Assembly: GCA_965230915.1 (NCBI GenBank)
Contig: OZ246395.1
Location: 140,019 to 204,018, forward strand
Source of the DNA: an uncultured Candidatus Saccharibacteria bacterium
GTDB taxonomy: Bacteria; Patescibacteriota; WWE3; 2-01-FULL-39-13
Length of the DNA: 64,000 nucleotides
Direction: 5' to 3'
Part shown: piece after piece, positions 32,869 through 64,000 of the stretch
Layout of the letters: each line of letters opens with the position of its first letter
Numbering within the stretch: the stretch's first letter is position 1
The notes under the pieces: generated by a model
What the model was told of the DNA's origin: nothing
Database searches by the model: none
What the model saw: only the letters and a program-made list of their open reading frames with translations
Made by a program: the position numbers and the translations under genes

Positions 32869-33696
<828 letters not shown>

Positions 33697-33746
33697 GCGA
33701 AGCGAATATGTGGCTTTATAATTAATTAAATCTGTATAATAAATTT

Positions 33747-34376
33747 ATGGAATTTTCTTTAGATAGCTTTCAATACTTAGTAATCGCAGCAAATTTTATT
33801 ATTACTGCATTCTTAATCGGATATTCTATATATCTATACAGAATCGAAAGAGATCTTAGGCATAAATTTAGGAATGTTAATGCGAAAGCTGCAAAAATAG
33901 TCGAAGAAGCGAATAACAAAGCTATCCACATAATAAATCACTCAAAGTATGTTTCAGACGAAATGAGAAACAACGCAGATCAGAGTTTTCAAAAAGTTCT
34001 AGAAGATCTCGAGAGCGAAAATAAAGGATTTTATAAATCATTAGAGCAAGCTTATTTTGATAAATCAGAAGTTTTTGTAAAAGGAATTCAAGCCGAAACC
34101 GAAAAAGGCATAAACGATTTCTCACAAAAAATCGCGCAGACTACAACAGAAACCCAGGTCGCAATCGAAAAAAAGCTTGAAGCCGACTACGAAGAAGCTA
34201 AAAAGGATATAAATAAGTTTAAGGAAATTAAAAAGAAAGAGTTTGAAGAAAAATTAAAAGAGAAAATAGCTTCAATTTCTGCTTCTGTAATGCCCGACTA
34301 TTTGAAAATTGACGACCAAGAGAAGTTTGCTAAGGAAGTAATCGAGAAAGCTGCTTCTGAAGGTTTTTTCAATTAA
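33747..34376 (+). CDS. atpF: F-type ATP synthase subunit b-like (single TM helix plus long coiled coil)
   Basis: N-terminal TM (YLVIAANFIITAFLIGYSIYLY) followed by a charged, Ala/Glu/Lys-rich helical region. Position in the operon fits b. Confidence 0.6.
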   Translation: MEFSLDSFQYLVIAANFIITAFLIGYSIYLYRIERDLRHKFRNVNAKAAKIVEEANNKAIHIINHSKYVSDEMRNNADQSFQKVLEDLESENKGFYKSLEQAYFDKSEVFVKGIQAETEKGINDFSQKIAQTTTETQVAIEKKLEADYEEAKKDINKFKEIKKKEFEEKLKEKIASISASVMPDYLKIDDQEKFAKEVIEKAASEGFFN

Positions 34377-34396
34377 TTATTGATCAAAATAATACA

Positions 34397-34861
34397 ATGA
34401 GTACAAATCCTGCCAAAAATAAAATAGTTTTAACCTTTGATGATTTTTCTGTAATAAAAGATAAATTAGAAAACTTAAGATCTCAGGTTTATAAAACTGA
34501 TTTTAAATTTGAAGACTATCTAGATAAAAATTTCACTAAAGAACAAAAAGAATTTATTTCTAATGATGTTAATGTTACTGCTGACGCCGCCGCGTCAGAA
34601 AAATCTATTGATACATTCTTGAAAAATATTTCAAACGCAGAAACAATATTTGTTAAGGTACCTTTTGTTCCATCGGCTGGATTTATACAGTGGATTAAAG
34701 AATATTTGCAAGAAAAAACAGCAAACAACAACGATACATGTTTACTAATGAAAATCGACACGGATAAATCTTTGATTTCAGGTGCTCACATTGAATTTAG
34801 AGGCAAAATAAAAGATCAAACAGCTAAAAACGAAGTATTAAATATTTTTAAAGTATCTTGA
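34397..34861 (+). CDS. atpH: F-type ATP synthase subunit delta (OSCP)-like
   Basis: C-terminal ...LISGAHIEFRGKIKDQTAKNEVLNI resembles the delta C-terminal (I)GG..V..G...DGS motif. Stop overlaps the atpA start (ATGA). Confidence 0.55.
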   Translation: MSTNPAKNKIVLTFDDFSVIKDKLENLRSQVYKTDFKFEDYLDKNFTKEQKEFISNDVNVTADAAASEKSIDTFLKNISNAETIFVKVPFVPSAGFIQWIKEYLQEKTANNNDTCLLMKIDTDKSLISGAHIEFRGKIKDQTAKNEVLNIFKVS

Positions 34862-36354
34862 CCAATAGCATCCTAACTAATTTTGATAAATATATTGACC
34901 AGGTAAAAGAATATGGGGTTGTTGAACAAGTTCGACATCCAGTTGTTATTGCTTCCGGGCTTCCTGGCGCCAAAATTAACGAAATTATTGTTTTTGAAGA
35001 TAATTCAGTAGGTCAAGTCACATCATTAAATATAGATAGTGTCGAAATAACAACTTTCTCTGATGTTCCGATGAAATCAGGAATGCGAGCTACTAGAACA
35101 AATGACAAGTTATTCGTTTCGGTTGGTAACGAGCTATTAGGAAAGGTTATAGACCCTCTGGGGAACCTTTTATTTGGGAGTTTAGATAAGCAACCCGATA
35201 CAAAACGGGAGATCGATGTTGCTCCACCAAGAATAGATAAAAGAGCTCGTATTACTAAACAATTACAGACGGGAGTTAGTGTAATTGACTCTATGCTGCC
35301 TTTAGGTAAAGGCCAAAGAGAACTTGTGGTTGGTGATCGAAAGACTGGTAAGACTTCCTTTGTTTTTAATATTGCCAGAACAATCGCAGAAAGCAGTCCT
35401 AATGATATAGTTATTTATGCATCTATTGGAAAAGAGAGAAGTGAATCAAAAAGACTAAAAGAAATTTTCCAGAAACAGCTAGACGAAGGTAAGATTGTCA
35501 TAGTTGCATCGAGCTCAGATCAATCTCCAAGCTTAATAGATTTGACTCCATATTCAGCAATGACCCTCGCAGAATACTTTAGAGACCAGAGTAAAGATGT
35601 CCTAGTTGTATTTGATGACTTGAGTACTCATGCAAAGTTTTATCGCGAAATGGCGCTGCTTTCTAAGCGTTTTCCCGGGAGAGATTCATATCCAGGTGAC
35701 ATATTTTATAAGCACGCACGACTTTTAGAACGCGCTGGAAACTTTAAAGTTGCCGATGGCAAAGAAGCATCGATTACTTGTCTTCCGGTTGCCGAAACTC
35801 AGGATAGTACATTAACCGATTACATTACATCAAACTTAATCGGTATAACCGACGGGCACATTTTATTCGACATAGAAGCTTTTAATAAAGGTATGAGACC
35901 TGCCGTAGACATATTCTTATCTGTTACTCGTGTGGGTAAGCAGACTCAAACAAAGTTGACCCGTGAAATTACAGGGAACGCATTAAAACTTCTAAAAGTT
36001 TACAACGATACTTTGGCCTACCAGCACTTTGGGGCTGAGCTTAGTACGGACGTTAAGAAACTCATCGATAAAGGCGAGAAGATTTATAAATTTTTTGAAC
36101 AGAGCACAGACGTTTCGGTGCCGCCACAGTTGCAGGCATTATTTTTAACTTTATTAATCGAAGGAAATTTTAACAAAAGAAGAACCACGGATGTTTTAAG
36201 CTATAGGGCAACTATGCTCGAAAACTATAGGAATGATATAAATGTAAAAAACAAGATTGACGAATTATATGCTGCAAAAGCATATAAAGACTATGTTAGC
36301 GCCATAAATGCAGATCCGAATAGTATCTACAAATGGTTGGGCTTCTTAAAATGA
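34858..36354 (+). CDS. atpA: F1 ATP synthase alpha subunit
   Basis: Walker A GDRKTGKTSFV (alpha-type GDRQTGKT). Alpha-typical N-terminal beta-barrel and C-terminal helical domain. Confidence 0.9.
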   Translation: MTNSILTNFDKYIDQVKEYGVVEQVRHPVVIASGLPGAKINEIIVFEDNSVGQVTSLNIDSVEITTFSDVPMKSGMRATRTNDKLFVSVGNELLGKVIDPLGNLLFGSLDKQPDTKREIDVAPPRIDKRARITKQLQTGVSVIDSMLPLGKGQRELVVGDRKTGKTSFVFNIARTIAESSPNDIVIYASIGKERSESKRLKEIFQKQLDEGKIVIVASSSDQSPSLIDLTPYSAMTLAEYFRDQSKDVLVVFDDLSTHAKFYREMALLSKRFPGRDSYPGDIFYKHARLLERAGNFKVADGKEASITCLPVAETQDSTLTDYITSNLIGITDGHILFDIEAFNKGMRPAVDIFLSVTRVGKQTQTKLTREITGNALKLLKVYNDTLAYQHFGAELSTDVKKLIDKGEKIYKFFEQSTDVSVPPQLQALFLTLLIEGNFNKRRTTDVLSYRATMLENYRNDINVKNKIDELYAAKAYKDYVSAINADPNSIYKWLGFLK

Positions 36355-36397
36355 GTTTAGAGGCGTTTAAATTTTTCAAAAGGCAATTCCATGCCTT

Positions 36398-38687
<2,290 letters not shown>

Positions 38688-38709
38688 TAGGCCTTGTTTG
38701 TCATATTAT

Positions 38710-38982
38710 TTAAAGGGATTCTAGGCCGACAAGTATTTCTACTTCGTTTTTTACGCATTTTAAAATACCTTTCCCGATTCTAAGTTGGACTTTTTCATTG
38801 TGGTTGGTTTGGATTAGGATATTTCTCTTAATAATTGATATAAAGCTTTGATGGCCTGGTAGGACATCGAAGCGACCCTCCTCATTTTCCGATGAAACGG
38901 ACTTCGCAGAGCCTGAGTAGATCGTTTTTTCTGATTCTATAACTTTTACCTCTAGTTTTTGTGTTTTATCTTTGGTTTCCAT
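38710..38982 (-). CDS. atpC: ATP synthase epsilon-like protein (N-terminal beta-sandwich only, 90 aa), encoded on the opposite strand, convergent with atpD
   Basis: LEVKVIESEKTIYSGSAKSVSSENEEGRFDVLPGHQSFISIIK matches the epsilon N-terminal-domain pattern (…IVTPE..I..G....V.......G..GIL.GH.P…). The C-terminal helical hairpin is absent. Confidence 0.5.
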   Translation of the reverse strand: METKDKTQKLEVKVIESEKTIYSGSAKSVSSENEEGRFDVLPGHQSFISIIKRNILIQTNHNEKVQLRIGKGILKCVKNEVEILVGLESL

Positions 38983-39143
38983 TACTACTATTCTAAGGCT
39001 ATATCTTATTGGTGTCTATTTGAGGTGCATGGAGGTTTATCTATTTAGCTTCTGTCATAGTTCTTGAGCTGAAATTGAGTAAAAAAATTTTGGTTATGGG
39101 GTACTTTTTTAGTGCAAAAAACTCGCGAGAAAAAATTACACTA

Positions 39144-39172
39144 TTGCTATGCTTTCAAAGCTTTTGTATAAT
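39144..39172 (+). promoter_or_regulatory. putative sigma70-type promoter for the giant gene: TTGCTA, 17-nt spacer, TG-TATAAT
   Basis: -35-like ttgcta (39144-39149), 17-nt spacer, then tgTATAAT (-10 at 39167-39172), ~38 nt upstream of the ATG at 39210. Confidence 0.4.
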
Positions 39173-39209
39173 TTTCTCATCACGAGATTTTTAAAATTAA
39201 TCCCTGCCC

Positions 39210-42200
39210 ATGGATACAACGAATCTTGACAATTTAAGAGATGTTAATCGGTTAGTACCAACTGACGAGATTATTAAACTTGCCAAAGATAGTGGAGTTA
39301 AATTCGGTTTCGGAGATGCAAGAAATCGTATCAGATACTTCGTTAAAAATGGGCTTCTTCCTCATCAAGTCCGTAAAGTTTTAGACGGAAAAATTACACC
39401 TCATCTTCCATACTCTGCACTTGAGAGGCTAATTGAAATCCAGGATCTTCAAACTACTTTTAAATATACAATCCCTCAACTTATAGAGCATTTTAATGAC
39501 TCTAACGTAAAGCAAGAGCGTTCAAAGTTTGAAGGATCAACTCCACAACCTATTGATGTTCCTGAAGAAGAGATTGTCGATGAAACAGTAAGTTCCACCT
39601 CTAATACCCCAGTTGCTCCTAATTCCGTGATAGATGCAACAAATGCTGCATCAGCCAATAGCATAGGTTCTGGGGATAATAATTCCTCTGTTATAGAAGA
39701 AGTTAAGCCACAAAAAAATGGTGGTTTTCAACCAATCGTCGGTAGCGAAGCTAGTAAGTTAGAAGTTGCGAATGGGAAGGTAAATGTAGGAGATTTGGCA
39801 AATGATGAGTTAGAAAATAAGACAGCAAAAGAGGTTGCGACAAAGCATGTCGGTAAGTACGCCTTAATTGCAGCTGGATTTTTACTTCTATTAATAGGTG
39901 TCATATCTCCATCGTTAGTAAGTGGTAAAGGTATTAATTTAGGTTGGCTGAAGAACGGGTTAAGTGATAGTTTTGGATTTTTACAAGATAAGGTAAATAA
40001 TGATGAAAATGCTCCTGCTGCTTCGGGCAACTTGGCGCAAAATGTCACAGATAGCACACAGGTAAGCTCAAATACTAATACAACAAATACTCAGGCATCG
40101 GTTTCAATATTTGGAATAAATATTCCAGCATATTTTTCAAATACGACTACATTCGGATCAGATGTCAATTTTGAGGGAAACCTTAATATAGAAAACCAGG
40201 ATATCAATTTGGGAACCGGGTCAATTCTTGCCTCAAATATTATCTACACAATTACGGGTGGAAATGGAATGCAGGTTTCGGCTGGCCAAAACCCTGTAAT
40301 TACAAATACTGGTGTATTAAGTATAGGTGGAGAATCAGGTGACATTGAATTAGCGGCTGGTGAAGGTATTGAAGTTGATGGAACCCAAATTACTAATATA
40401 GGAGTCCTTAGCCTTGGTGGAGAAACAGGTGAGCTTGAATTATCTGCTGGTGCAGATATAGATATAAATGGTTTACAAGTTGCACTTCAACCGGTACTAG
40501 ATACGGTTGAACAGATAAATTTGCCTGCAGATTCTGCAACAGCTTTGAAATTTGGCGGTATTGGAATTGGCCAAGCTGGTACATCGGTTTCTACATCGGG
40601 AGCTTCTTTAATCGGAATATATGACAATTTAGTCAACAGCTCAGCATCGAATCTACAATTGGCAGTTTCGGATATCGATACAGCGATAGGTGATCGCGAT
40701 TATTCGTTCCCACATTACATATCAGACGGACAAACTGTGACAGAAAGTTTAGAAACTTTAGATTCAACAATTTGGGGAATAGTCGGAGGTTCGATTGTCT
40801 GGTTTGATGGGGGCAATTACGTTTATACATCTGATTCTGAATACTTGGGAAATCCAACTAGTGGAGGAGCTAATAAAGTTACTGGGCTTTTCCTAGAAGA
40901 TAATGCCCCTATAACTTTTGGTACAAGCAATAATTTTACTGCTGTATTTGATGGAACACAGTTCGCTATGACGGATGGTTCTAACATTTTTATGAGTTTA
41001 GTTGATAGTGGTGCAAGCGCGAATTTTGCAATTAACAGGGATGACTTATTTGTTGCTCATGACGGTAAGGTAGGTATTGGAACAACTGCCCCGAGTTCTG
41101 CTTTACACGTAATCGGAAGTGCCAATATAACCGGTCAATTAACCTTAGGCAATGTTCCAACTGTAGGCGCTACTTCAACTGTGTTAACAAGCAGCTCTGG
41201 AGTTATTTCAGCTATGGATGTAAGCAGTTGGGATCTTGATTCATCCGATGATGTAACCACATTTTTAGGGTTAACAGATACGCCTGCTTCATATGCAGGG
41301 GCTGCTAATTATTTTGTAAGAGTAAATGGTGGCGGTACTGCATTGCAATTTACTGATTTAAGTGCATGGGATCAGGATTCTTCAGATGATTTAACCGGTT
41401 CAGGTGTAGATAGGTTCATTCCACTTTGGAATTCTGCTTCAGACTTGGTAACGTCTATTTTATATCAGGAAAGTGTGACAAATAATGTCGGTATCGGTAC
41501 TACAGATCCTGAATATGCTCTAGATATCGTAGGCGATATCAATACTTCTACAGATTTATTCGTTAATAATATTGCATTAAGTTCAACCGGGGGAGCAGGT
41601 TTAATTGGGGTTGATAGTACCAACATTGCAAATTCTTCAGCCACTATATTGCAAGATGTTTTAGAGGACCTAGACGCTTCTATCCAAAGCGGCTCACATG
41701 ATCCATTAACTTTAGCTGGCTCTTATGATTACTTAACATTAGATGGTCCGAATCAAGTTCTTACTCTAAATCAGATTGATTTAACAACAGGTACCGGAGA
41801 TGTAACTGGTTTATTAGGCGTGACAAATGGTGGTTTAGGCGCAAATGTATCAGCAGCTGGGGCTGGAGAATTGTTATTCTCGACTTCAACAACTGCTTAC
41901 GATTCTTTAAGTGCCGGATCTTCGAATCAGATTTTATTATCGAATGGAGCAGCTTCTCCTAGCTGGGTTAACTTAAGTACTTTGATTTCAGGGGGGGATG
42001 ATATTAGTGTGACCGGAACTACGTCCTTAACAGTTGCTTTGGAGGATAATATAGATCTTATTTCAGTAAATGCTGCCAGTGATGCGGGTATTAGCTTTTA
42101 TGATAATGGTAGCAACTTAGGTATGTTTATCGAGGATGGTGGTCAGATTGGTGTTGGTAGAACAAATCCTGAATACACATTAGATGTATCTGATACAGGA

Positions 42201-45200
42201 AGATTTGGAGGTCAATTGACATTAGCTTCTGTTCCATCTAGTGCAAGCAATAGCGTTTTAGTATATGGAGCGGGCGGAATTGTTTCACAAAGAGATGCTA
42301 GCGGTTGGGATACAGATGCGTCAAATGATGTCACCACTTTCTTGGGATTAACCGATACACCAAGTACATACGCAGGAAGCGCTAACTATATAGTCCGAGT
42401 TAATGGAGCAACAAACGCACTAGAGTTCTTAGATGCAGCAGGTTGGGATCAAAATGCTGCAGATGACTTAACCATTTCAGGAACAGCAAATCGTTCAGCT
42501 AAATTTAATGCATTAGGAAATAATGTAATGGAAGGATCTATAGATGATCTATATAACGCAGTTGCAGTAACAATTGATGCAAGCGGTAAGGTCGGTATCG
42601 GAACAACTGGCCCACAATTTGCATTAGATGTTGTCGGAAGAATTAGAGCTACAACCGATTTAATGGTTGGATCAGTAAATTTGGCTGACAACTCTTCAGC
42701 TGCAAGCGGAGCATCATTAATAGGAGTATTTGATAATAGCTTAACTTATGTTTCTGGTAATACTAATGTTCAAAGTGCTATTGAGCAATTAGATGCAGCA
42801 ATTGCAACAGCATCAGTCGGTGATATTTCTGCGATCGGTGATGTAACAAGTGGCGATGCGTTTACATCGGGCGGAACACAGGGAACAAGTTTATGGTTCT
42901 ATGATGCAGATGGAAGAGGTCAATTAACAATTGCTAACTTAACAGGACCACAGACATACACATTGCCGGACGCTAGCGGTGAGATTTCATTATTGGGTCA
43001 AACAATTGCAAACAACGAATTAGTAAATTCAGATATCACATTCAATGGTGATTCGGGTTCCGCCGCTATCTCCTTGGGCGGGGATTTTGACGTGATCGGC
43101 GGACCCGGAATCAGCACTTCAATATCAGCTACAACACTAACAATTACTAATACTGATTTAGGATCTACACAAAACATCTTCAAGAATATAGCTGTATCTG
43201 GCCAAAACACAGTTGTTGCAGATGCTAACAACGACACAATGACCCTAGTTGCAGGTACAAACGTAACTATTACAACAGACGATACAACTGATTCCGTAAC
43301 AATAAATGCAACAGATACTAATACAACATATACAGCAGGCAACGGTTTAACTTTAGCCGGAACAACATTCAAGTTCGGTGGAACAATTAGCGAAGATACA
43401 AGACTATTTAGTGCTACATCTGGAGAGATTCTATTTGTAAACGATACAACCGGAAATATTGGTTTGGGTATGACAGCTCCAGGCTACAAGTTAGATATAA
43501 ATGGAACAGCTAGAGTAGGCGGTCAATTAACATTAAGCAATGTTCCTTCCACATCTAATAATAATTTAGTGTTAACAGTAAACGGTGGAGTTGTTAGCTC
43601 TATAGATACAAGCGCGTGGGATACAAATGCGTCAAATGATGTCACTACTTTCTTGGGATTAACAGATGCTCCTGACTCATACACAGGCAGCGAGACTTAT
43701 TTAGTAAGAGTAAAGGCAGATGGAACAGGCTTAGAATTTGTAGATCCTGCGACAGTAGGCGGAGTTAACTCAGTCACAAATAGTGATGGAACATTAACAA
43801 TCTCTCCAACAACCGGAGCTGTTGTTGCTTCATTAAATTTAAATCAAGCAAACGCTTGGCTAGCTGCTCAAACATTTAGTGCCAATACATATTTTGGTGG
43901 AAATGGAATTTGGAGTTCTACAGGTGATGTCGGTATCGGTACAACTGCACCAGCATATAAACTTGATGTTGTTGGTGGAATTAGAACAACAACAGACTTG
44001 TTTGTAGGCAATATTGGATTAGGAACAACACAGCCTACAGGCTCAGGAGCTTCACTAGTTGGCGTTTATAATGGAAACTTAACAAACTCTATTGCTACAA
44101 ATGTTCAGTCTGTATTAGAGGATTTAGATGCTGCAATAGCAGGTTCTTCACACGATGCAGTTACATTAGCAGGTGCATACGATTACTTAACATTAAGTGG
44201 CCAACAGATTACATTGCAACAGATTGATTTAACTGAGGATGTAATAGGAGTATTGCCAACCTCAAATGGCGGTACCGGGCTAAATATTGATCCTACTGCA
44301 ATTGCTGACGGCCAGATTTTAATTGGAAACAATGCTGGTGACACATTTAGCTTAGCTACTATAACTCAAGGAACAGGTATTTCTATAACAAACGGTTCAG
44401 GAACAATTACTATTGCCAACTCTGACTTGGGTTCTAGCCAAAATATCTTTAAGAATATAGCTGTAAATGATCAAGGAACTGTGTCAACTGATACAAACAA
44501 TGACACTTTGACATTAGTCGCAGGAACAAACGTAAGTATTACAACCGATACCGGATCAGATTCAATAACAATTAACGCTACCGACACAGATACAACATAC
44601 ACAGCAGGCAATGGTTTAACTTTAGCAGGAACAACCTTCAAATTCGGTGGAACAATAACAGAGCCTACAAGATTAGCTGATGGCTCATTCGAATATCTAT
44701 TCTTAAATAATGCAAATGGAAGAGTAGGTATTGGAACAACTAACTCAGGTAGCAAGCTATCGGTAAGCGGTAACCAATCTATCGGTTCTACATATGCATT
44801 ATTGGCGGCTCCAACTAATGGATTAATCGTAGAAGGAAATACAGGAATCGGAGTAACGGCAACTATCTACCAATTAGAAGTTGGCGGAACAGCGGCTGTA
44901 CAAAACCTAGTATTAGGTGGAACACAAATAACAACAACTGGAACCGAAATTAATTTACTAAGCGGATTAACATCGACTTCAACAGAACTGAACTACCTAG
45001 ACGGAACAACAGTTCCAGCTGGTGCAGTGATGTTCGGAGACGGAACAAAGATTACAAATGATATTTCTAATTTCTTCTTTAATGATTCAACAAACAGATT
45101 AGGTTTGGGAACATCATCTCCAGATGCGACAATCGATGTCGCCGGTACAGCATGGTTACGAGGTAATTTATCCGCAGAAGGTTTATATGTTAACTCATCA

Positions 45201-48200
45201 GGTAATGTCGGAATCGGCGGAACAGCTGCTACTAGTGCTCCATTCTTCTTTAATACTTCGAGCGGATTTGCTACTAACTTAAGTTCAGCAACAGCATTAA
45301 CAGTTGGAGCAAACGGAACAGCATATGCAACATTTGATACTACACTTGGTTCTTCTAGTGACTTATTAAGCCTAAATGCTCCTGCTGGAAGCACATTAGG
45401 AAACTTATTTGCGATTTATGATAATGGTTCTCCGGTATTTAAGGTTTCACAGAACCAAATCGAGTCGGCTGTTCCACATACATTTACAGCAGCAGGTGAT
45501 GTTTCGATGTCTTATGATTTGAATTTCACCAACCCAACGGCTGCATATATAAACTTTGATGGTCCTGGTTATATCAGAACGAATAATCCAAGCGGCAACT
45601 ATGATTTAACATTAAGCGCAGCTAATAGCGGAGTGGTTTATATCGATGACAACTTAACAATTAGCGGAACTCAATTAACATTAACAAATGCTGCTGCATT
45701 AGACTTAGCGGCGTCGACAACAGCTCTAAATATCGAAAATGGTTTATTGAACTTAGATTCTACAAATGCAAGAGTTGGAATCGGAACAACAGTTCCAGGA
45801 TCTACATTATCTGTTGCAGGTAATCAAGCTATCGGTGCAACTTATGCAAGATTAGCAGCCCCAACAAACGGATTAATAGTGGAAGGTAACGTCGGAATTG
45901 GATTTACTGCAACAAACTACAAGTTGGCAGTAGCTGGAACAGCAGCAGTTTCTAATTTTGTACTTGGCGGAACACAAATCACAGCAACTGGCGCAGAAAT
46001 TAACTTACTAAGCGGATTAACTTCTACATCAAGCGAGCTTAACTACTTAGATGGAACAACCGTTGTAGCAGGTGGAGTAATGTTTGGAGATGGAACAAAG
46101 ATTGCCCAGGATACATCTAATTTCTTCTTTGATAGCGCAAGTAAGAGATTAGCAATCGGAACATCAGCAGCAAATAGCGGTTTAACAGTAATGGGATCAG
46201 GATCATTCGGCGCTGGTTATTCAAATATCGGAATTTCAGCTCCATTAAATGGCTTACTAGTGCAAGGAAATGTCGGAATCGGAATGACAAATCCTGGAGC
46301 ATTCGCTCTTAATGTAAACGGAAACATCAAGACTTCTGGCGACCTATTCATCGGAAACATCGGACTTGGAACAACAAATAGCGCAACTTCATCAGGAGCA
46401 TATTTAGTAGGAGTATTTGACGAATTTGATAACTCTAACTCTACAAATGTTCAGGCTGTATTAAACGATTTAGACGCAGCAATTGCTTCATCTGCGGGAG
46501 GATCAATTACTGGAATCGGCGACGTATCCTCAGGAGATGCATTTACAGCAGGTGGAACAAGCGGAACATCGCTATGGTTCTATGATCCACAAGGCCGTGG
46601 CCAATTAACAATCGCCAACTTAACAGGTGCACAAACATATACACTTCCAGATGCTAGTGGAGAGATCTCATTATTAGGTCAGACAATCGGTAATGCAGAA
46701 TTAGATAATTCAACAATTACATTTAATGCAGATACAGGTACTGTTGCATCAGCATTGGGTGATAGCTTCGCAATAAATGGAGGACCAGGTATAAGTACAG
46801 AAATCTCTGGAACAACATTAACAATCACAAATACAGACCTAGGCTCAAGCCAAAATATCTTTAAGAACATTTCGGTAAGCGGTCAAGGAACTGTATCTAC
46901 CGATACAAATAACGACACTTTGACATTAGTTGCAGGCACAAATGTAACTATAACTACTGATACAGGTTCGGATTCGATAACAATTAATGCAACAGACACA
47001 AATACAACATATACGGCTGGTAATGGTTTAACCTTAGCTACCACCACATTTAAGCTAGGTGGAACCATTACCGAAGACACAAGGCTTGCAAACGGTTCGT
47101 TTGACTACATCTTCTTAAATAACTCGGACGGAAACGTCGGTATTGGAACAACTGGTCCATTGTTTAAATTAGATGTAAACGGAACCGCAAGATTTACAGG
47201 AAACGTAACATTGGGTTCTGTTCCTGCTGATTCAAGTAACAACGTATTGGTATTAGATGGAAGCGGAGTTGTTTCTCAAAGAGATATAAGTGCATTCGAC
47301 CAAAATGCGTCAGATGATGTCACTACATTCCTAGGATTAACGGATACTCCAAGCTCATATACCGGAAATGAAACATACTTAGTAAGAGTGAATGCAGCAG
47401 GTAATGCTTTAGAATTTATCGACCCAACTACAGTAGGTGGAGTTAACTCAGTTGCAAATAGTGATGGAACATTAACAATCTCTCCAACAACAGGAAATGT
47501 AGTGGCTTCAATTAATTTAAACAACGCAAATGTATGGACAGGAAGCCAAACATTTAGCGCAAATACATACTTCCCAGGTAGCGGAGTTTGGGACACATCT
47601 GGCGATGTTGGAATTGGAACGACAGATCCACAATATAAATTGGATGTGGCTGGCTCTATAAATGTACTGGGCTTCTATCTATCAGGTGTTGCGCTTACTT
47701 CTTCTGCAGATGAATTAAACATTTTAGATGGAGCAACTCTTTCGACTTCTGAACTGAATATCTTAGACGGCGTTACTTCTACGGCAGCTGAAATTAATTA
47801 CCTAGATAACTCGACTGTATTAGCAGGAGGAATGGTGTTCGGAAATGGAACTAACTTTACACAAGATGTTTCAAACGTTTTCTACAATTCAACAACAAAG
47901 AGACTTGGAATCGGAACATCAACACCTGGAAACACTTTAGGTGTTGCCGGCGCAGCCGCAATCGGATCAGGTTACGCAGGAACTGGAATTTCTGCTCCGG
48001 CAAACGGCTTACTGGTACAAGGTAATGTCGGAATTGGAACAACTAATCCTGCATTCAAACTTGATGTAAATGGAGATATAAGAGTTGTCTCTGGTTCAGA
48101 TTTATATATCGGTGCAATCGGAATGAACGATAATGCATCGTTATCATCGGGAGCTTCATTGATCGGCTTATATGACGATTCAATGACATATATAAGTGGA

Positions 48201-51200
48201 AATACAACAGTTCAGGATGCAATAAAACAATTAGATACCGCAATCGCATCGGCAGCAACCGGAGACATAACTGCAATCGGTGACGTAGCAAGTGGCGCAG
48301 CATTCACATCAGGTGGAACACAGGGTACAAGTTTATGGTTCTACGATCCACAAGGTCGCGGTCAATTAACGATCGCAAACTTAACAGGTGACCAGACATA
48401 CACATTGCCAGACGCATCAGGAGAAATTTCATTACTTGGTCAGACGATAGGTAATTCAGAGCTTGAAAATTCAACAATCACATTCGCAGGTGATACAGGC
48501 TCTAATGCATCAGCCCTTGGAACAACATTCAATATCGTAGGCGGAACCGGAATCGGAACATCAGTAGGAGGAAACAACGTGTCGATCATAAACACCGATC
48601 GTGGTTCATCACAGAGTATATTCAAGAACTTCGCAGTAAGCGGTCAAAACACAGTAGTTGCAGATGCAAACAACGACACCTTAACACTAGCCGCCGGATC
48701 AAACATAACTATCACAACAAATGACACAACAGACACAATTACAATTGCTGCAACCGATACAAATACAACATACACAGCAGGCAACGGTTTAACATTGGCT
48801 ACAACTCAATTCAAGTTAGGTGGTCAAATAACAGAGCCAACAAGATTATTCGACGGGTCAAACGAATACTTATACATCAACCCTAATACAGGAAATCTTG
48901 GTATTGGTACAACAAATTCAGGCTACAAACTAGAAGTTAACGGAACATTCAATGCTGCAAGCGGATTCTACTTAGCAGGCTCACAAGTAACATCAAATGC
49001 ATCCGAATTAAATATATTAGACGGAGCAACACTAAATACAACAGAGCTTAACTACCTAGACGGCACAACTGTTGTAGCGGGAGGAATAACATTCGGAAAC
49101 GGTTCATATATCGCTCAAGATCCAGCTGATTTCTTCTGGAACAACACCTCAAACAGATTAGGTTTAGGAACATCTGCTCCAACAACTACATTAGATGTTG
49201 CAGGAACCTTTAGAGTAACAGGGAACACAACATTAGGCGATGCATCAGGTGATACGGTAACTTCAAACGCTGCTTCTTGGATATTCGCAAATGCAACAAC
49301 AATCGATTTAGCAAATTCAACAGCTGCATTAAGTATTGAAGGCGGATTATTAGGATTTGACTCGTCAAATGGAAGAATCGGAATCGGAACTACAGCTCCA
49401 AGTAAAACACTAGATGTGATTGGTGGAATAAGAACAACAGATGATTTATACGTAGGATTAATCGGTCTAAATGATAACGGATCAACATCATCAGGATCTT
49501 CATTAATCGGCTTATACGACAATAGCTTAGTTTACATTTCCGGAAATACTACAGTTCAAAGTGCGATCGAGCAGTTAGATGCAGCAATTGCAACAACCGC
49601 AGGTAATCAACACGATCCTGTAACCCTTGCAGGTTCACTAGCCTACTTAACATTAAATGACCAAGAAATAACTTTGAATGCGATTGACTTAACAACCGAT
49701 GTATCTGGAGTTCTTCCATTGGAAAATGGGGGAACAGGCAAGAATATCGACGGAACTGCAATTACAAATGGCCAGATTTTAATTGGGAATGCTACTACCG
49801 ACGGATTCGACCTTGCAACAATAACTCAAGGAACCGGTATTTCTGTAACAAATGGAGCAGGTTCAATCACAATTACAAATACCGATTTAGGATCAAGCCA
49901 GAATATCTTTAAGAATATAGCTGTAAATGATCAAGGAACTGTGTCAACTGATACAAACAATGACACATTAACATTAGTCGCTGGAACAAACGTAACGATC
50001 ACAACCGATGACACAACAGACTCAATAACAATTAACGCTACAGATACAAACACAACATACACAGCAGGCAATGGATTAACTTTAGCGGGAACAGTATTCA
50101 AGTTTGGTGGAACAATAACAGAACCAACAAGATTAGCTGACGGTTCATTTGAATACCTATTCTTAAATAATGCAAATGGAAGAGTAGGTATAGGAACAAC
50201 TAACTCAGGTAGCAAGCTTGGTATAGCCGGAAACGTAGGTATCGGAAACTCATATGCAACATATGCCGCTCCAGCTAATGGATTGATAGTAGAAGGTAAC
50301 ATTGGAGTTGGATTTACAGCTACAAATTATAAACTCGGTGTAAACGGAACAGCAGCTGTTTCAAACCTAGTACTTGGCGGAACACAGATTACAGCTACAG
50401 GTACAGAGATTAACAAATTAAGTGGATTAACTTCATCAACTGCAGAATTAAATATATTAACAGGCGTCACAACAAACGCTACAGAACTTAATTATCTAAC
50501 CGGATCATCAGTAGTATCTGGCGGAATAGTTTTTGGGGATGGAAGCAAATTCACACAAGATGCTGCTAACTTATTCTTCAATAACACATCAAAGAATTTA
50601 TCAATTGGTTCAACCGCAGGTGGTAGCAGACTTTCAGTAAATGGTGGAGCAGCAATCGGTTCTGGCTATATCGGAACAGCACTTTCAGCTCCAACAAACG
50701 GACTTCTTGTTCAAGGAAATGTTGGAATTGGAACAACAAACCCAGGAACTTATGCATTGAACGTAAATGGAACTGCAAATGCAAATGCATTATCAATTGG
50801 TAACTTACTATTATCAGCAAATTCAACTGCTACATCAGGCGGAACTTTAGTCGGAATTAATGACAACTCATTAACATATGTTTCTGCTAATACAAATGTC
50901 CAATCAGCAATCGAACAATTAGACGCAGCAATGTCATCAAACTTTAGCGGAGTAATAACAGCAATTGGTGATGTAACAGCAGGGGACGCATTCACATCAG
51001 GTGGGACACAAGGTACAAGCCTATGGTTCTACGATGCACAGGGCCGTGGCCAATTAACAATTGCTGATTTAACAAGTGCAAGAACATACACATTGCCAGA
51101 TGCCAGTGGGGAAATTTCATTACTAGGACAAACAATTTCTAATGCTGAGCTAGATAATTCAACAATCACATTCGCAGGGGACACAGGTTCAAATGCTTCA

Positions 51201-54200
51201 GCATTAGGAACAACATTCAACATCGTAGGTGGAACCGGCATCGGAACATCAGTTGGAGGAAACAACGTGTCGATCATAAACACTGATCGTGGCTCTTCAC
51301 AAAATATCTTCAAGAACTTTGCAGTAAGCGGTCAAAACACAGTATCAACCGATACAAACAACGACACATTAACATTAGTCGCTGGAACAAATGTAACAAT
51401 CACAACCGATGACACAACAGACTCAGTAACAATTAACGCTACAGATACAAATACAACATATACAGCAGGCAACGGTTTAACTTTAGCCGGAACAACCTTC
51501 AAGTTTGGTGGAACAATAACAGAGCCTACAAGATTAGCCGATGGTTCTTTTGAATACTTATTCTTAAATAACGGAAATGGAAGAGTGGGTATTGGCGCTA
51601 CAAACTCAGGAAGCAAATTATCAGTAGCTGGAAACGTAGGTATCGGAAACTCATATGCAACATATGCAGCTCCAGCAAACGGATTAATCGTAGAAGGCAA
51701 CACCGGTTTAGGAGTAACAGCTACAAACTTCAAGCTAGAGGTTGGAGGAACAGCAGCTGTTAAGAACTTAGTATTGGGTGGAACTCAAATAACAGCAACA
51801 GGAACTGAATTAAACAAACTAACAGGAGCAACACTATCAACAACAGAATTAAATTATCTAACAGGCACCACTGTTACATCAGGTGGAGTTCTATTCGGGG
51901 ACGGAACAAAGATTACTAACGATTCAGCTAACTTCTTCTGGAACGATTCAACAAATAGATTGGGTTTAGGGACAACAGCTCCTGGTCAGCAATTAGAATT
52001 AACTGGAAATATATTGTTACAAGGTAGCGGAAAGATTTACTTTGACGGTCCTGCATCAACCAACTATTCGATCTCGAGAAGTGCAAATAGATTCAGATTA
52101 GATTCTGCAGATTCATTTACTATTGGTTTAGACTCAACTGGATTAACGGGTGATGCTTTCTTAAATATAACTGACAGAAATGTTTCAAGAGTTTACATGG
52201 ATGCAAATGGTTTATTTGGAATCGGAACATCCGCTCCAGAAAGCTTGTTAACAGTTAAAGGAAATGCATCTATTGGTTCGGGTTATACAGGAATCGGAAT
52301 TTCATCCCCGTTAAATGGATTATTAGTTCAAGGTAACGTCGGAATCGGAAACACAAACCCAGGTGCATATGCATTAAATGTAACCGGAAACCAAAATATC
52401 AGCGGAACACTAACACTTGGGACAGTTAACTCAACATCAAACAACAATCAGGTACTAACAGTAAATAATGGGGTTGTTAGCTACATCGATACAAGCGGAT
52501 GGGATACAAACGCTTCAAATGATATTTCAACATTCTTAGGATTAACAGATACTCCAAGCTCATACAGCGGGGTTGGTAGCCAATTTGTAAGGGTGAACGC
52601 AGGTGAATCAGCTTTAGAATTCGTCGACTTATCAGCATGGGATCAAAATGCTGCAGATGATTTAACAATCTCTGGAACCGATAATAGAATCGCAAGGTTC
52701 AATGCGGCAGGTAATAACGTAGAAAATTCATCAATCGATGACGCATACACAGGTGGAGTTGCTCTAAGAATATTTGCAAATGGAACAATCGGAATCGGAG
52801 TAACTGCAACCAATTATCAATTAGCCGTCGGTGGAACTGCTTCGGTTTCAAACCTTGTATTAGGCGGAACTCAATTAACTGTAACTGGAACAGAATTAAA
52901 TCTATTAAGCGGATTAACCGCAACTTCATCCGAACTAAACATCTTAGACGGAGCAACATTATCAACGGCTGAATTAAATATTCTTGATGGCGCGACAGTT
53001 ACAGCTGCAGAACTTAATTACTTAGATAATTCATCAGTATTAGCAGGCGGATTAGTATTTGGAAACAACAGCAACTTTACACAAGATGTAGCAAATATTT
53101 TCTGGAACGATTCAACAAAGAGGTTAGGAATTGGAACATCGGCTCCAGGCCAAACATTATCAGTTGCTGGAACATTCGGTATAAAAGAAGGCGGATCATC
53201 TCCACATTTCTTTACAGCATTCCAGGGCGGAGACCAAAGCGCAGATATAACTTACACATTGCCAGTTGATGACGGATCAAGCGACTACGTTTTAGTAACC
53301 GATGGAAATGGAGTTCTTAGCTGGCAATCAGTCGGCGGAGTAGGTGCAGGAACCGGAGATATAACAGCAGTAATTGCTGGCGGAGGTTTATCTGGTGGAG
53401 CTTCAACAGGTGACGCAACACTCGATATCGGAGCTGGAAACGGTATCACTGTAAATGCAGATGATATTGCTATAAAGCTTGCAATATCATCAGGTGTTGG
53501 TGCAACAGCTTCATACTCCGGATTAGAAGTAAATTCAAACGGATTAAGTATGTTAACAGGTTGCGGTCAGGGCGAAATTTTAACTTGGGATGATTCCAAT
53601 AACATCTGGAAATGCGCTTCTATCGCATCATCAGGCGGAATAACTGGAACAGGTACAGCTAACTATGTTCCTTTATGGAATACATCATCAGATTTAACAA
53701 ATTCAGTAATCTATCAAACAGGTTCTAGTTTAGGAATTGGAACAACTGTCCCTGGAAGCAATCTATCAGTAAGCGGAAATCAGGCTATTGGTGCTTTATA
53801 TTCACGATATGCAGCTCCAGCGAATGGATTAATCGTAGAAGGTAACGTTGGAATCGGTTATACAGCTACAAATTACAAACTTGCAGTAGCTGGAACGGCA
53901 GCATTCAGCAACTTAGTACTTGGTGGAACACAAATTACAGCAACTGGAACAGAAATCAATAAATTAGCTGGCTTAACATCATCGACATCTGAACTAAACA
54001 TTTTAACTGGAGTAACTGCAAATGCTACAGAAATAAATTACCTAGATAATTCAAGCGTATTGGCAGGCGGATTAGTATTTGGAAACGGATCGAACTTTAC
54101 ACAAGATGTCGGAAGTATTTTCTTTGATTCAACAAATAAGAGATTGGGAGTCGGAACTTCAGCCCCAACAAGTGCTTTATCAGTAAATGGTGGAGCTGCA

Positions 54201-57200
54201 ATTGGTTCTGGTTATGCAGGTGGTGGAGTTTCTGCTCCAACAAATGGCTTATTGGTACAGGGTAGAGTTGGAATTGGAACAACCAATCCATCCTCAACAT
54301 ATGCTTTAGATGTAAATGGATCAATAAGAGCAACTTCATTAAATACAGCAAGCTCAACATATCAAAATGCTTTAATTTCAAATTCAGGTGCGTTCAACGT
54401 TAGTGTAGGAGGCGGAAGCAACTTATACATGACACTAAATGGAACTTCAGCTTCAGATAACTATATCGTTAGAACTGGTACAACAGATTTATTTAGAGTA
54501 GGTGGAAATGGCAAAGTCGGAATCGGAACAACAGCTCCAGAATCATTATTATCAGTAAAAGGTAATCAAACAATTGGCGCCGGTTACACAGGAATCGGAA
54601 TCTCAGCCCCAGTAAATGGTCTATTAGTCCAAGGTGTAGTCGGAATCGGCATGACCAACCCAGGTGCATTCGGATTAAACGTTGGAACAGGAATCAATAC
54701 ATTAGACGATCTATACGTAAATTCAGTCGGCCTAAATGATAACGCTTCAACAACCTCTGGAGCTTCATTAATCGGATTAAATGACGATTCAATGACATAC
54801 ATTTCCGGAAACACAACAGTACAAAGCGCAATCAAACAATTAGATACAGCAATTTCTTCAGGTCTAGGCGGAACAATAACAGCAATCGGAGATGTAACAT
54901 CTGGTGATGCATTTACATCAGCTGGAACACAAGGAACATCACTTTTCTTCTACGATCCACAAGGTCATGGCCAATTAACAATTGCAAACTTAACAGGTGA
55001 TCAAACTTATACACTTCCAGATGCAAGTGGAGAAATTTCTCTTCTTGGCCAAACAATCAGCAATTCAGAGTTAGTAAATTCAGATATCACATTCAATGGT
55101 GATTCGGGTTCCGCCGCTATTTCCCTGGGCGGGGATATTGACGTGATCGGCGGACCCGGAATCAGCACTTCAATATCAGGTACAACACTAACAATTACTA
55201 ATACCGATTTAGGCTCTACACAAAACATCTTCAAGAATATAGCTGTATCTGGCCAAAATACAGTTGTTGCAGATGCTAACAACGACACAATGACCCTAGT
55301 TGCAGGTACAAACGTAACTATTACAACAGACGATACAACTGATTCCATAACAATCGCAGCTACCGACACAAACACAACATACACAGCAGGAAACGGTTTA
55401 ACTCTTGCATCTACAACATTTAAACTTGGTGGAACAATCAGCGAAGATACTAGACTCGCAAATGGTTCTTTTGAATACTTATTCTTGAACAATGCAAACG
55501 GAAGAGTCGGAGTTGGAACAACAAATTCAGGATCAAAATTATCTGTAAATGGTAATCAAGCAATCGGAGCAACTTATGCTTCTTATGCAGCTCCAGCAAA
55601 TGGATTAATCGTAGAAGGAAACACTGGTCTTGGTGTAACTGCAACAATCTATAAACTCGAAGTTGGCGGAACAGCAGCTGTTAAGAATTTGGTATTAAAT
55701 GGAACACAAATAACAGCAACCGGAACCGAAATCAACAAATTATCTGGCTTAACATCTTCAACAGCAGAACTAAATATTTTAACCGGAGTAACAACCAATG
55801 GTACTGAGCTCAATTATTTAGATAATTCAACAGTATTAGCAGGTGGATTAGTATTTGGAAACGGTTCTAATTTCACTCAAGATATTTCAAACATCTTCTT
55901 TAATAGCACTTCAAAGAATCTTGGTATCGGAACATCAGCTCCAGGAAGCAGATTGTCAGTAGCAGGTGGAGCAGCAATCGGATCAGGATATGTAGGGTCA
56001 GGCTTATCAGCTCCAACAAACGGACTTCTTGTTCAAGGAAATGTCGGAATTGGAACAACAAACCCAGGAACATATGCGCTAAATGTTGCAGGCGGAGTAA
56101 ATGTTTCAACCTTATCGATTGGCAACTTACTATTATCAGCAAATTCAACCGCAACATCAGGAGCAACATTAGTTGGATTAAATGACGATTCACTAACTTA
56201 TGTAAGTGGAAACACAAGTGTTCAAGATGCTATTAAACAACTTGACACGGCAATTGCAACAGCAGCAACAGGTGATATTTCAGCAATCGGTGACGTAGCA
56301 AGTGGCGCAGCATTTACATCAGGTGGGACACAAGGTACAAGTTTATGGTTCTATGACCCACAAGGTCGTGGTCAATTAACGATCGCAAACTTAACAGGTG
56401 ACCAGACATACACATTACCAGATGCATCAGGAGAAATTTCATTACTAGGACAAACAATTTCTAATGCTGAGCTAGATAATTCAACAATCACATTCGCAGG
56501 TGATACAGGGTCAAATGCTTCAGCATTAGGAACAACATTCAACATCGTAGGTGGAACCGGAATCGGAACATCAGTAGGTGGAAACATCGTGTCGATCATA
56601 AACACCGATCGTGGTTCATCACAGAGTATATTTAAGAATATTGCCGTAAGCGGTCAGAATACCGTAGTTTCAGATGCAAACAACGATACATTAACACTTG
56701 CAGCAGGTTCTAACGTAACAATCACAACAAACGACACTACAGACACAATTACAATTGCTGCAACCGATACAAACACAACATATACAGCAGGCAACGGTTT
56801 AACTCTCGCTTCAACAACATTCAAACTCGGCGGATCTATTACAGAACCAACAAGATTATCAGACGGATCATTCGAATACTTGTTCTTAAATAATGGAAAC
56901 GGAAGAGTAGGTATAGGAACAACAAACTCAGGTTCTAAACTCGGCATAGCTGGAAACGTAGGTATCGGAAACTCATATGCAACATATGCAGCTCCATCTA
57001 ACGGTTTGATAGTTGAAGGGAATGTAGGCTTAGGTGTAACGGCAACAAACTTCAGATTAAGCGTAAATGGAACAGCTGCGGTTACAAACTTAGTACTAGG
57101 TGGAACTCAAATTACAGCAACTGGCACTGAAATCAATTTATTGTCAGGTTTAACATCAACTTCAACCGAGCTTAACTACTTAGATGGTACAACAATAACT

Positions 57201-63998: not shown

Positions 63999-64000
63999 CA

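Follow-up and report, generated by a model that had tools for sequence, protein, structure and literature searches.

Among the described regulators that come closest to the protein considered here are the transmembrane transcription regulators (TTRs), such as ToxR, CadC and TcpP, in which an N-terminal cytoplasmic DNA-binding domain is followed by a flexible linker, a single transmembrane (TM) segment and an extracytoplasmic C-terminal part. A survey of these proteins (Demey et al. 2023, PMC10269533) listed 50,302 TTRs in 9,673 genomes, 56% of them single-pass and 736 of them (about 1.5%) with a MerR or MerR_1 head; Patescibacteria are not named in those portions of its text and supplements that were accessible. 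The same order of parts is found in a giant protein of that lineage, the open reading frame (ORF) of which starts at position 39210 on the forward strand of a 64,000-nt stretch of contig OZ246395.1 (the window), from an uncultured Candidatus Saccharibacteria bacterium. In accordance with the structural definition of a TTR, a domain of DNA-binding type (residues 12-105) and a TM region (residues 217-239) are joined in one polypeptide.

We regard it as moderately probable that this giant protein is a membrane-tethered, MerR-like regulator of its own promoter, held by a signal anchor with its N-terminus inside and its C-terminus outside (N-in/C-out) and carrying a giant fibre on the outside. Its relatives in the ultra-small Patescibacteria probably form, together with it, a family of gene regulators that are tethered to the membrane, and in the giant protein a huge external fibre would thereby be linked to the DNA. 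The TTRs control promoters from the membrane, whereas for the giant protein we infer such control. An initial annotation of the window had left the role of the N-terminal part at docking or signalling, which was vague; the evidence points to DNA binding and putative promoter control, which it had not proposed.

The likeness to the described TTRs has its limits. ToxR and CadC have an OmpR-type winged helix-turn-helix (wHTH; Trans_reg_C) and a compact periplasmic sensor of about 100-250 residues, whereas the giant protein has a MerR-like head and a fibre of more than 8,000 residues; in fact, Pfam gave no match to Trans_reg_C in the window protein nor in 65 relatives. The recognition helix, wing and helices 3 and 4 of the family are homologous to those of MerR, CueR, BmrR and CadR. 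The classical MerR proteins, however, continue with an antiparallel coiled coil and then an effector domain at the C-terminus, and the family has neither. The same wHTH core, likewise without the long dimerisation helix and the effector domain, is found in TnrA, GlnR, BldC and CvkR, but these are small and soluble, and the family differs from them by an FGxGDP insertion, the membrane anchor and the ectodomain. TnrA and GlnR form dimers that bind to palindromic sites (PMC5859096). RacA of Bacillus subtilis resembles the family in that a MerR-like wHTH links the DNA with the cell envelope. It is soluble, tethered via DivIVA and directed to many GC-rich sites near the origin, whereas the giant protein is predicted to be membrane-integral and its candidate sites lie in promoters. 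On the outside, the phage tail fibres and tailspikes with the Peptidase_S74 domain (also present in relatives) and the giant adhesins come closest, the ectodomain being repetitive, acidic and G/T/S/N-rich. The giant gene is chromosomal, however, and a signal anchor at the N-terminus, preceded by a head of DNA-binding type, would hold its product, whereas phage fibres are held by the virion baseplate. Known giant adhesins have LPXTG, C-terminal-TM or type-1-secretion anchors, unlike the giant protein.

Patescibacteria (the candidate phyla radiation, CPR) have tiny genomes with few recognisable regulators, and their giant surface proteins are mostly unannotated; we know of no account of how they sense and answer their hosts. 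The family offers a functional handle on a giant surface protein, as it combines a head of DNA-binding type and a fibre with a testable operator and a link to the ATP-synthase genes. If the binding is true, the giant protein would be an extreme one-component transmembrane regulator and part of a rare defined regulatory circuit in CPR bacteria. Moreover, its predicted anchor would mean that giant fibres can be held by an N-terminal signal anchor instead of the usual cell-wall or secretion-system routes.

Head, linker, helix and ectodomain of the giant protein

The frame begins at the ATG at 39210..39212 (+), the first start codon past the in-frame TAA at 39198-39200; homologues begin at the equivalent place, with the domain starting within about 12 residues of the N-terminus. 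From there it stays open for 8,263 codons (24.8 kb) without a stop up to the window end, and the gene is thus 3'-incomplete. Translation of 39210-40500 reproduced exactly the peptide quoted in the initial annotation, including ...ELENKTAKEVATKHVGK-YALIAAGFLLLLIGVISPSLVSG-KG.... Residues 1 to ~225 had there been taken as one N-terminal domain. A distinct part of cytoplasmic class is indeed present, but it is made up of two elements: a wHTH of ~95 residues (~12-105; 39243..39524, +), predicted to be cytoplasmic, and a disordered-looking acidic linker (residues 106-216).

The identity of the first element became apparent from its relatives. At a cutoff of E<=1e-3, an exhaustive phmmer/HMMER search of 1.84 billion representative sequences returned 190 homologues. 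Their best E-value is 2.3e-34 and each aligns to residues ~12-105 only, and a hidden Markov model (HMM) of the family scores the window ORF at E = 6.6e-32. An alignment of 65 domain modules from these homologues (A1) has the signature LIPxxxxIxxAKxxGVxFGxGDPxNRxRYxIKxGLLPHxxRK...GHxP...L..I..L. In the recognition helix (NRIRYF in the window protein) the R-x-R-Y motif is nearly invariant, with R40 and Y43 conserved at 90% or more. When the 65 relatives were scanned singly with Pfam, 45 matched MerR_1 (PF13411) at E<=1 (best 3.6e-8) and 24 matched MerR (PF00376), and one relative of 220 residues exceeded the MerR_1 gathering score (27.5 versus 21.6 bits). Run against all PDB sequences, the A1 profile gave 4ua1 (1.9e-6), 3gpv (2.3e-4), TnrA (0.0076) and GlnR (0.03), followed by CadR and HiNmlR-type chains. 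The best matches, up to an E-value of about 0.1, are MerR-family chains, including MerR, and some unrelated chains appear among the matches above that value. The MerR-family chains align from the NRxRYY recognition helix via the wing to helices 3 and 4.

The predicted structure is in line with these matches. AlphaFold2 (AF2) with the A1 alignment gave a mean predicted local distance difference test score (pLDDT) of 88.6, and of 92-98 across residues 11-90, for a model with strands at residues 15-17, 54-58 and 61-67 and helices at 18-27, 37-46, 69-83 and 88-96. The order strand-helix-loop-helix-hairpin-helix-helix is the MerR winged-HTH topology plus the nearly invariant FGxGDP insertion; the loop between helices 1 and 2 counts nine residues and deviates from the MerR fold. 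Foldseek backing for the MerR fold was weak, the best structural TM-score being that of CvkR. The single window sequence was uninformative in most searches. Scans of residues 1-107, 1-260 and 1-1000 against Pfam, NCBIfam and PHROG gave nothing significant, phmmer against the PDB gave no match, and a word-indexed protein search gave no matches with the single sequence and only three with the profile. The single-sequence AF2 model was unusable (pLDDT 46), with a low-confidence linker, and an hhalign comparison of the family profile with a single, approximate CueR sequence was uninformative (probability 2%). Because 45 of the 65 relatives match MerR_1, the profile finds MerR-family structures and the AF2 fold is confident, the head is very probably a divergent MerR-like wHTH. 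In organisation it is closest to the minimal MerR-like proteins that have no coiled coil or effector domain (TnrA, GlnR, BldC, RacA). A known secreted domain at the N-terminus, which would have spoken against the initial annotation, was not what the homology search brought up; it gave the MerR-type DNA-binding wHTH instead.

The second element, the linker (residues 106-216; 39525..39857, +), is acidic (pI 4.4), of low complexity and without Arg, and ends in the K-rich KTAKEVATKHVGK. It is predicted to be disordered and cytoplasmic on the basis of its composition, the low-confidence single-sequence AF2 model and the fact that no homologue aligns to it. Across the family its length varies from about 0 to 249 residues. 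The K-rich stretch sits immediately ahead of YALIAAGFLLLLIGVISPSLV, as the initial annotation had it, and here lies the single TM helix (residues 217-239, YALIAAGFLLLLIGVISPSLVSG; 39858..39926, +), the predicted uncleaved signal anchor. In Kyte-Doolittle windows of 19 residues, residues 219-237 score 2.48, and the runner-up across all 8,263 residues reaches 1.49. The composition shifts sharply at this helix. Residues 12-105 are basic (pI 9.6), and residues 240-8263 have a pI of 4.05, are rich in G, T, S and N and contain only 205 Lys and Arg among 8,024 residues (2.5%). There are no Cys residues in positions 1-340, nor is there any Cys or His cluster.

The absence of a cleavable signal peptide, also claimed in the initial annotation, was borne out. 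The hydrophobicity scan found no h-region of a Sec signal peptide in the first ~30 residues, the first and only hydrophobic segment of the window protein begins with residue 217, and in 150 of 150 homologues the domain has no hydrophobic segment ahead of it. The K-rich flank had been taken to predict an N-in/C-out topology. Over the family this holds as a significant bias, the 15 residues before the helix containing on average 3.08 Lys and Arg against 2.27 after it (higher in 60 and lower in 23 proteins; Wilcoxon p = 7e-6), but in the window protein alone the bias is weak. Considering the family bias, and given that HTH domains are cytoplasmic and that no N-terminal signal peptide is present, an N-in/C-out (type II) signal anchor is the likely arrangement as judged from sequence.

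The ectodomain (residues 240 to >8,263; 39927..64000, +) extends past the window end. Its fibre-like, acidic, G/T/S/N-rich composition, poor in Lys and Arg, and the Peptidase_S74 domains of giant relatives agree with the extracellular location that had been assigned to the rest of the protein. It opens with a post-TM motif common to relatives (...ASNIIYxIxGGxGIxVxxGQxPxI...). Pfam gave only sub-threshold matches over all 8,263 residues, none of them significant, and no Peptidase_S74 was found in these residues; the C-terminus lies beyond the window. Among the relatives, Peptidase_S74 is present in P0016 (4,159 residues) at residues 3416-3468 (E = 2.8e-17) and in the protein of locus L005 (1,185 residues; gene 4645-1088, -) at residues 801-854 (E = 1.4e-13). 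This endosialidase-type intramolecular chaperone is typical of trimeric phage tail fibres. Its occurrence in cellular, putatively membrane-anchored relatives implies that trimeric, self-processing fibres may exist outside the phage context. A phage origin of the giant gene itself is unsupported: the family DNA pattern matched none of 2.9 million viral contigs, and the neighbouring genes are chromosomal housekeeping genes.

The layout of domain, linker, one TM helix and variable ectodomain recurs in about 250 Patescibacteria proteins of about 200 to 5,766 residues, at least ten of which exceed 2,000. Among the 150 best homologues 67 have 250 residues or more, and 63 of these have one TM segment after the N-terminal domain; those without it are mostly short fragments. 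For a second, independent sample the motif NR[IL]RY.x.K.GLLP was back-translated into a DNA pattern, which yielded 11 loci from GTDB genomes and 98 from metagenomes. The domain was present in 106 of the 111 loci collected, and among these 106 each ORF with more than ~170 residues available has one TM helix, 10-130 residues past the module. Judged from these sequences, the order of domain and helix is thus not due to chance, because it recurs in both samples. The named loci of the second sample are WWE3, "Saccharibacteria" and "Patescibacteria group" metagenome-assembled genomes (MAGs), with three labelled "uncultured Gammaproteobacteria" by their submitters. About 11 homologues have two tandem copies of the domain ahead of the helix, which fits the recognition of a two-fold symmetric site. 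A small sub-clade of ~200-230 residues (L014, L099, L070, L078, L031, L030, L026 and L036) shares this head and TM helix but has only ~90 residues in its outside domain.

In the sole case where a source names a family member, the label is "hypothetical protein". No HTH or MerR heads are mentioned by West-Roberts et al. in their survey of giant genes, and a full-text literature search for MerR-type membrane proteins in Patescibacteria or Saccharibacteria gave nothing relevant and no paper that describes the family. What is new is an unannotated family, confined to Patescibacteria in the samples taken, with an FGxGDP-modified HTH, a defined dyad, a positional tie to the ATP-synthase cluster and an outside part that can be as small as about 100 residues or as large as the fibre of the giant protein (more than 8,263 residues).

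A dyad at the promoter and the tie to the ATP-synthase genes

A consensus scan placed a sigma-70-like promoter directly upstream of the giant gene, composed of a -35-like hexamer TTGCTA (39144..39149, +) and a -10 hexamer TATAAT (39167..39172, +) that lies 37 nt ahead of the ATG, with 10 of 12 consensus matches and a 17-nt spacer. The motif ATTGCT is found at the same place in L003, L004, L005, L007 and L010. Abutting the -10 box and overlapping the expected transcription start is TTTCTCATCACGAGATT (39173..39189, +), a degenerate copy of a dyad that emerged from comparison of the upstream regions of the family. The family dyad spans 17 bp, TTYCYCG-N3-CGRGRAA, with TTTCCCGTSACGGGAAA as its commonest form; TTTCCCGTGACGGGAAA and the window copy TTTCTCATCACGAGATT are put forward as candidate targets of the head.

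The dyad is strongly concentrated in front of the family genes. For 80 non-identical genes, 28 sites with at most one mismatch lie within the 24 kb made up by the 300 nt upstream of each, distributed over 27 genes, against 12 in the 586 kb elsewhere, a 57-fold difference in density (binomial p = 1.6e-30). Most of the dyads counted elsewhere are located upstream of the neighbouring gene for a membrane protein of ~256 residues. Allowing two mismatches, 43 of the 80 genes have an upstream dyad. Among 44 non-identical control regions shared with a divergent operon (type A), 36 contain a site with at most two mismatches and 27 one with at most one, and 14 contain two sites.

For the window copy a position weight matrix (PWM) was derived from 99 sites, all in other loci; neither the copies in the window itself nor those of its closest relative, L003, entered it. 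With this matrix the site is the best non-coding site of the window, ranking third among 63,984 positions, and 0.5% of random 60-nt stretches score as well. The two positions that rank higher (TTTCCCTGGGCGGGGAT, 55120-55136 and 57883-57899) are identical, lie 2,763 nt apart inside the giant ORF and probably merely mark a long coding repeat. In relatives with the arrangement of the window (type B) a site occurs at the same place, as in L003 (TATAAT-TTTCTCGTTACGAGATT) and L008 (TTTCCCGTCACGAGAAT), and L040 and L100 have a dyad-like sequence directly after the -10 box (TATAAT-TTCCCGT...).

The central bases T-S-A of the dyad are symmetric in themselves, which fits two-fold recognition of duplex DNA by a protein and not an RNA hairpin. 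An RNA-hairpin reading was rejected on further grounds as well: the symmetric T-S-A would leave a loop of 1 nt, in the class adjacent to the -10 box the left arm would precede the expected start of transcription, and the leader and site of the window fold no better than shuffled sequences (z = -0.75). Rfam found one tRNA only in the window and nothing in the 5' leader of the giant gene. A general promoter motif was likewise rejected, for TATAAT followed by TTCTC is found within the window only at the giant gene. A correspondence between the operator variant (TCTCG versus TCCCG) and the recognition-helix variant (NRIRY versus NRLRY) is suggestive, but it is confounded by phylogeny and has exceptions, and it was not used as evidence.

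In the classical MerR systems the operator lies inside a 19-20-nt spacer, whereas in the window the spacer measures 17 nt and the dyad comes after the -10 box, on its 3' side. Given the normal spacer and the position of the dyad past the -10 box, activation by untwisting of the DNA is not expected. The layout of merR and merT, in which the MerR-type gene is divergent from its target operon with the dyad in between, is the classical one. The family genes in most relatives share this layout, with a divergent neighbouring operon and the dyad between.

That neighbour is in many cases the ATP-synthase cluster. Genes for ATP synthase adjoin the family gene in 64 of 109 loci (tblastn), which were sampled by the DNA pattern of the domain alone; they include L002, L004, L007, L015, L022, L024, L043, L045, L047, L048 and L065, as well as L076, L079, L085, L086, L092, L095, L101, L104 and others. 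Two arrangements are found. In type A the family gene and the gene that opens the cluster are transcribed divergently, and in type B, represented by the window, L003, L004, L007, L010, L011, L008 and L101, it lies just downstream of the beta and epsilon genes. In the window the cluster (32872..38982, mixed strands) is directly upstream of the giant gene and contains, as read from the translations, a membrane protein of 274 residues, two small ORFs and the alpha, gamma and beta subunits. The protein of ~256 residues mentioned above is homologous to the product of window ORF 32872-33696 at the head of this cluster (E = 4.5e-38). The conserved position next to the ATP-synthase genes suggests a possible regulatory link to energy metabolism.

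Together these elements suggest the following as the likely course of events. The wHTH would be translated first and remain in the cytoplasm, followed by the flexible acidic linker of ~110 residues. On emerging, helix 217-239 would direct the ribosome to the Sec translocon and stay behind as membrane anchor, and the 8,000 or more residues that follow would be exported co-translationally to form a surface fibre resembling a tail fibre. The tethered wHTH could then reach the chromosome and bind the 17-bp dyad, probably in the form of a dimer or a higher oligomer that the fibre keeps together. Binding at TTTCTCATCACGAGATT, just past the -10 box, would shut off or tune the transcription of the gene itself. 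Autorepression is the simplest form of such control, because the dyad overlaps the expected transcription start of the giant gene. In most relatives the dyad is also present in the control region common to the family gene and the divergent ATP-synthase cluster. The external part could serve as the input, by surface or host contact. A more far-reaching version, in which the fibre of more than 8,000 residues is wired to the DNA and senses host or surface contact or mechanical load, so that via one TM helix the MerR-like head sets how far its own gene is transcribed and, for most lineages, the neighbouring ATP-synthase cluster as well, is doubtful. If true, it would couple attachment to energy metabolism in episymbiotic Patescibacteria, by means of a positionally conserved, lineage-wide regulator with a sensor part of about 100 to more than 8,000 residues.

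Regulator, tether, docking module or released head

Several observations weigh against the identification of the giant protein as a tethered MerR-like regulator. With respect to the head, the giant protein itself passes no Pfam threshold. The sequence homology to MerR leaves out helix 1, which is set off by the family-specific insertion FGxGDP of 6-7 residues. The canonical MerR coiled coil is absent, as both conservation and model confidence stop at ~105 and are followed by a short low-confidence helix (98-108). The same holds for the MerR-type C-terminal effector domain for metals or drugs, in the place of which come the linker, the TM helix and the fibre. The positive-inside bias of the window protein taken alone is slight, with a net charge of +2 before and +1 after the helix. 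With respect to the site, the window dyad TTTCTCATCACGAGATT has three mismatches, and by count such sites are no better than chance (13 found versus 16 expected). The trimeric fibre implied by Peptidase_S74 has no simple correspondence to a two-fold symmetric operator, and the small sub-clade (~220 residues) has neither the dyad nor ATP-synthase neighbours; it is probably a paralogous group with a different target. Finally, that the dyad is occupied by this domain and not by another factor is something we infer.

The same parts could also make up an architectural tether between DNA and membrane, in which the wHTH keeps the chromosome, or the very long gene that encodes it, attached to the membrane, much as RacA anchors DNA at the cell pole, or stabilises the coupled transcription, translation and export of a gene of more than 25 kb. 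The MerR-like wHTH does serve in the architectural proteins RacA and Xis (PMC5859096), and RacA makes a DNA-membrane tether (PMC6593407). Moreover, the long flexible linker would be suitable and the window site lies at the gene's own promoter. The distribution of the dyads, however, is that of one or two discrete promoter sites, often common to a divergent operon, which is the signature of a local regulator and not of dispersed anchor sites. In addition, members with an ectodomain of only ~100 residues carry the same head, so that aiding the export of giant proteins cannot be its general role. We consider a tether unlikely.

The head could also be a wHTH repurposed as a cytoplasmic protein-docking module, in line with the docking of the initial annotation, directed to a membrane partner or to the products of the ATP-synthase genes, with a different, soluble regulator on the dyad. 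The nearly invariant FGxGDP insertion, which is no MerR feature, could be a surface for protein contacts; helix 1 falls outside the homology to MerR, the window dyad is degenerate, and the strict synteny with the ATP-synthase genes could reflect a link at the protein level. On the other hand, the residues that are best conserved with MerR proteins are precisely those of the recognition helix and wing (NRxRYY, RK), and the domain is basic. The tandem heads of some members match a two-fold site, and the dyad accompanies the gene in both arrangements, divergent from and downstream of the ATP-synthase cluster. A docking role is improbable on this evidence.

Regulation by the head might also proceed through its release by proteolysis, either by signal peptidase, which would cleave at the helix and free the fibre, or by intramembrane proteolysis that frees the wHTH after a signal at the surface. 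Some membrane-tethered regulators are known to be released by cleavage, the residues directly after the helix are small (SLVSG-K), and elsewhere in this fibre family the S74 domains stand for self-cleavage. For CadC, proteolytic activation is reported (PMC11484849). However, comparison by eye revealed no conserved site of the A-x-A type after the helix in the relatives, and no protease gene was noticed adjoining the giant gene. Proteolysis, which appears quite improbable, would in any case alter only the last step of the proposed regulation and not the identity of the parts. That head and fibre are separate genes joined by a frameshift, a misassembly or a wrong start is most improbable, for although the sequence is of metagenome type and the gene runs past the window end, the frame is continuous over 24.8 kb, head and fibre are fused in the same way in more than 100 independent contigs that come from different studies (contigs of 0.87 Mb and 1.08 Mb among them), and the N-terminal region of the window protein is found again in two short contigs of separate sequencing runs (Logan assemblies).

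Further features of the leader and the neighbouring genes

A palindrome CTCGCGAG (39122..39129, +), located 5' of the -35 hexamer, was picked up in a palindrome scan and is possibly an auxiliary site, although this is uncertain. The window contains only two palindromes of the form CTCG-N0-5-CGAG, this one and the distant CTCGTCGAG at 1737, and L004 has a perfect TTTCTCGCCGCGAGAAA at the corresponding place. The sequence TCTCATTAAGAGA at 9414-9426, inside ORF 8495-10804, is identical to the promoter-proximal element of L004; its occurrence there is probably due to chance.

Just 5' of the start codon lies the motif CCTGCC (39203..39208, +). In unrelated MAGs, too, many family genes have it directly ahead of their ATG. 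It is often extended to GGACCTGCC or AAYCCTGCCC and is found in L003, L005, L006, L007, L040, L048, L065, L075 and L100; it is not complementary to the canonical anti-Shine-Dalgarno sequence. Most ORF starts in the window between 1 and 39000 have no Shine-Dalgarno-like sequence. The TAnAAT-like box that many of them carry is only about 10-15 nt away from the ATG and suggests that the mRNAs of the window may mostly be leaderless. The giant gene, with its conserved leader of about 30 nt, forms an exception among them.

The protein at the head of the ATP-synthase cluster (ORF 32872-33696, +) is of a type with 256-274 residues, with a signal peptide, an outside domain of ~170 residues and two C-terminal TM helices that carry a shared motif. 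It occurs also in L027, L048, L054, L065, L066, L075, L079 and L080, and Pfam gave no match for it. Its C-terminal hairpin presumably resembles the loop of a c subunit, but with Asn at the position of the carboxylate. Pfam recognised no a, b, c or delta subunit in the window cluster. The epsilon gene (Pfam ATP-synt_DE_N; 38710-38982, -) is encoded on the other strand than alpha, gamma and beta. An opposite-strand epsilon is also found in the closer relatives of the window (L004, L007, L010, L011 and L101), and in other lineages epsilon follows beta on the same strand. Glycogen synthases are also among the genes upstream of the giant gene. In L003 (5957-8000), the closest relative (a giant protein of more than 1,951 residues), only a degraded beta remnant lies between the giant gene and the glycogen synthase gene, with 36% identity over 301 residues by tblastn and no ORF over 69 residues. 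From these remains, the ATP-synthase cluster of L003 seems to have decayed, with retention of the promoter and dyad of the giant gene.

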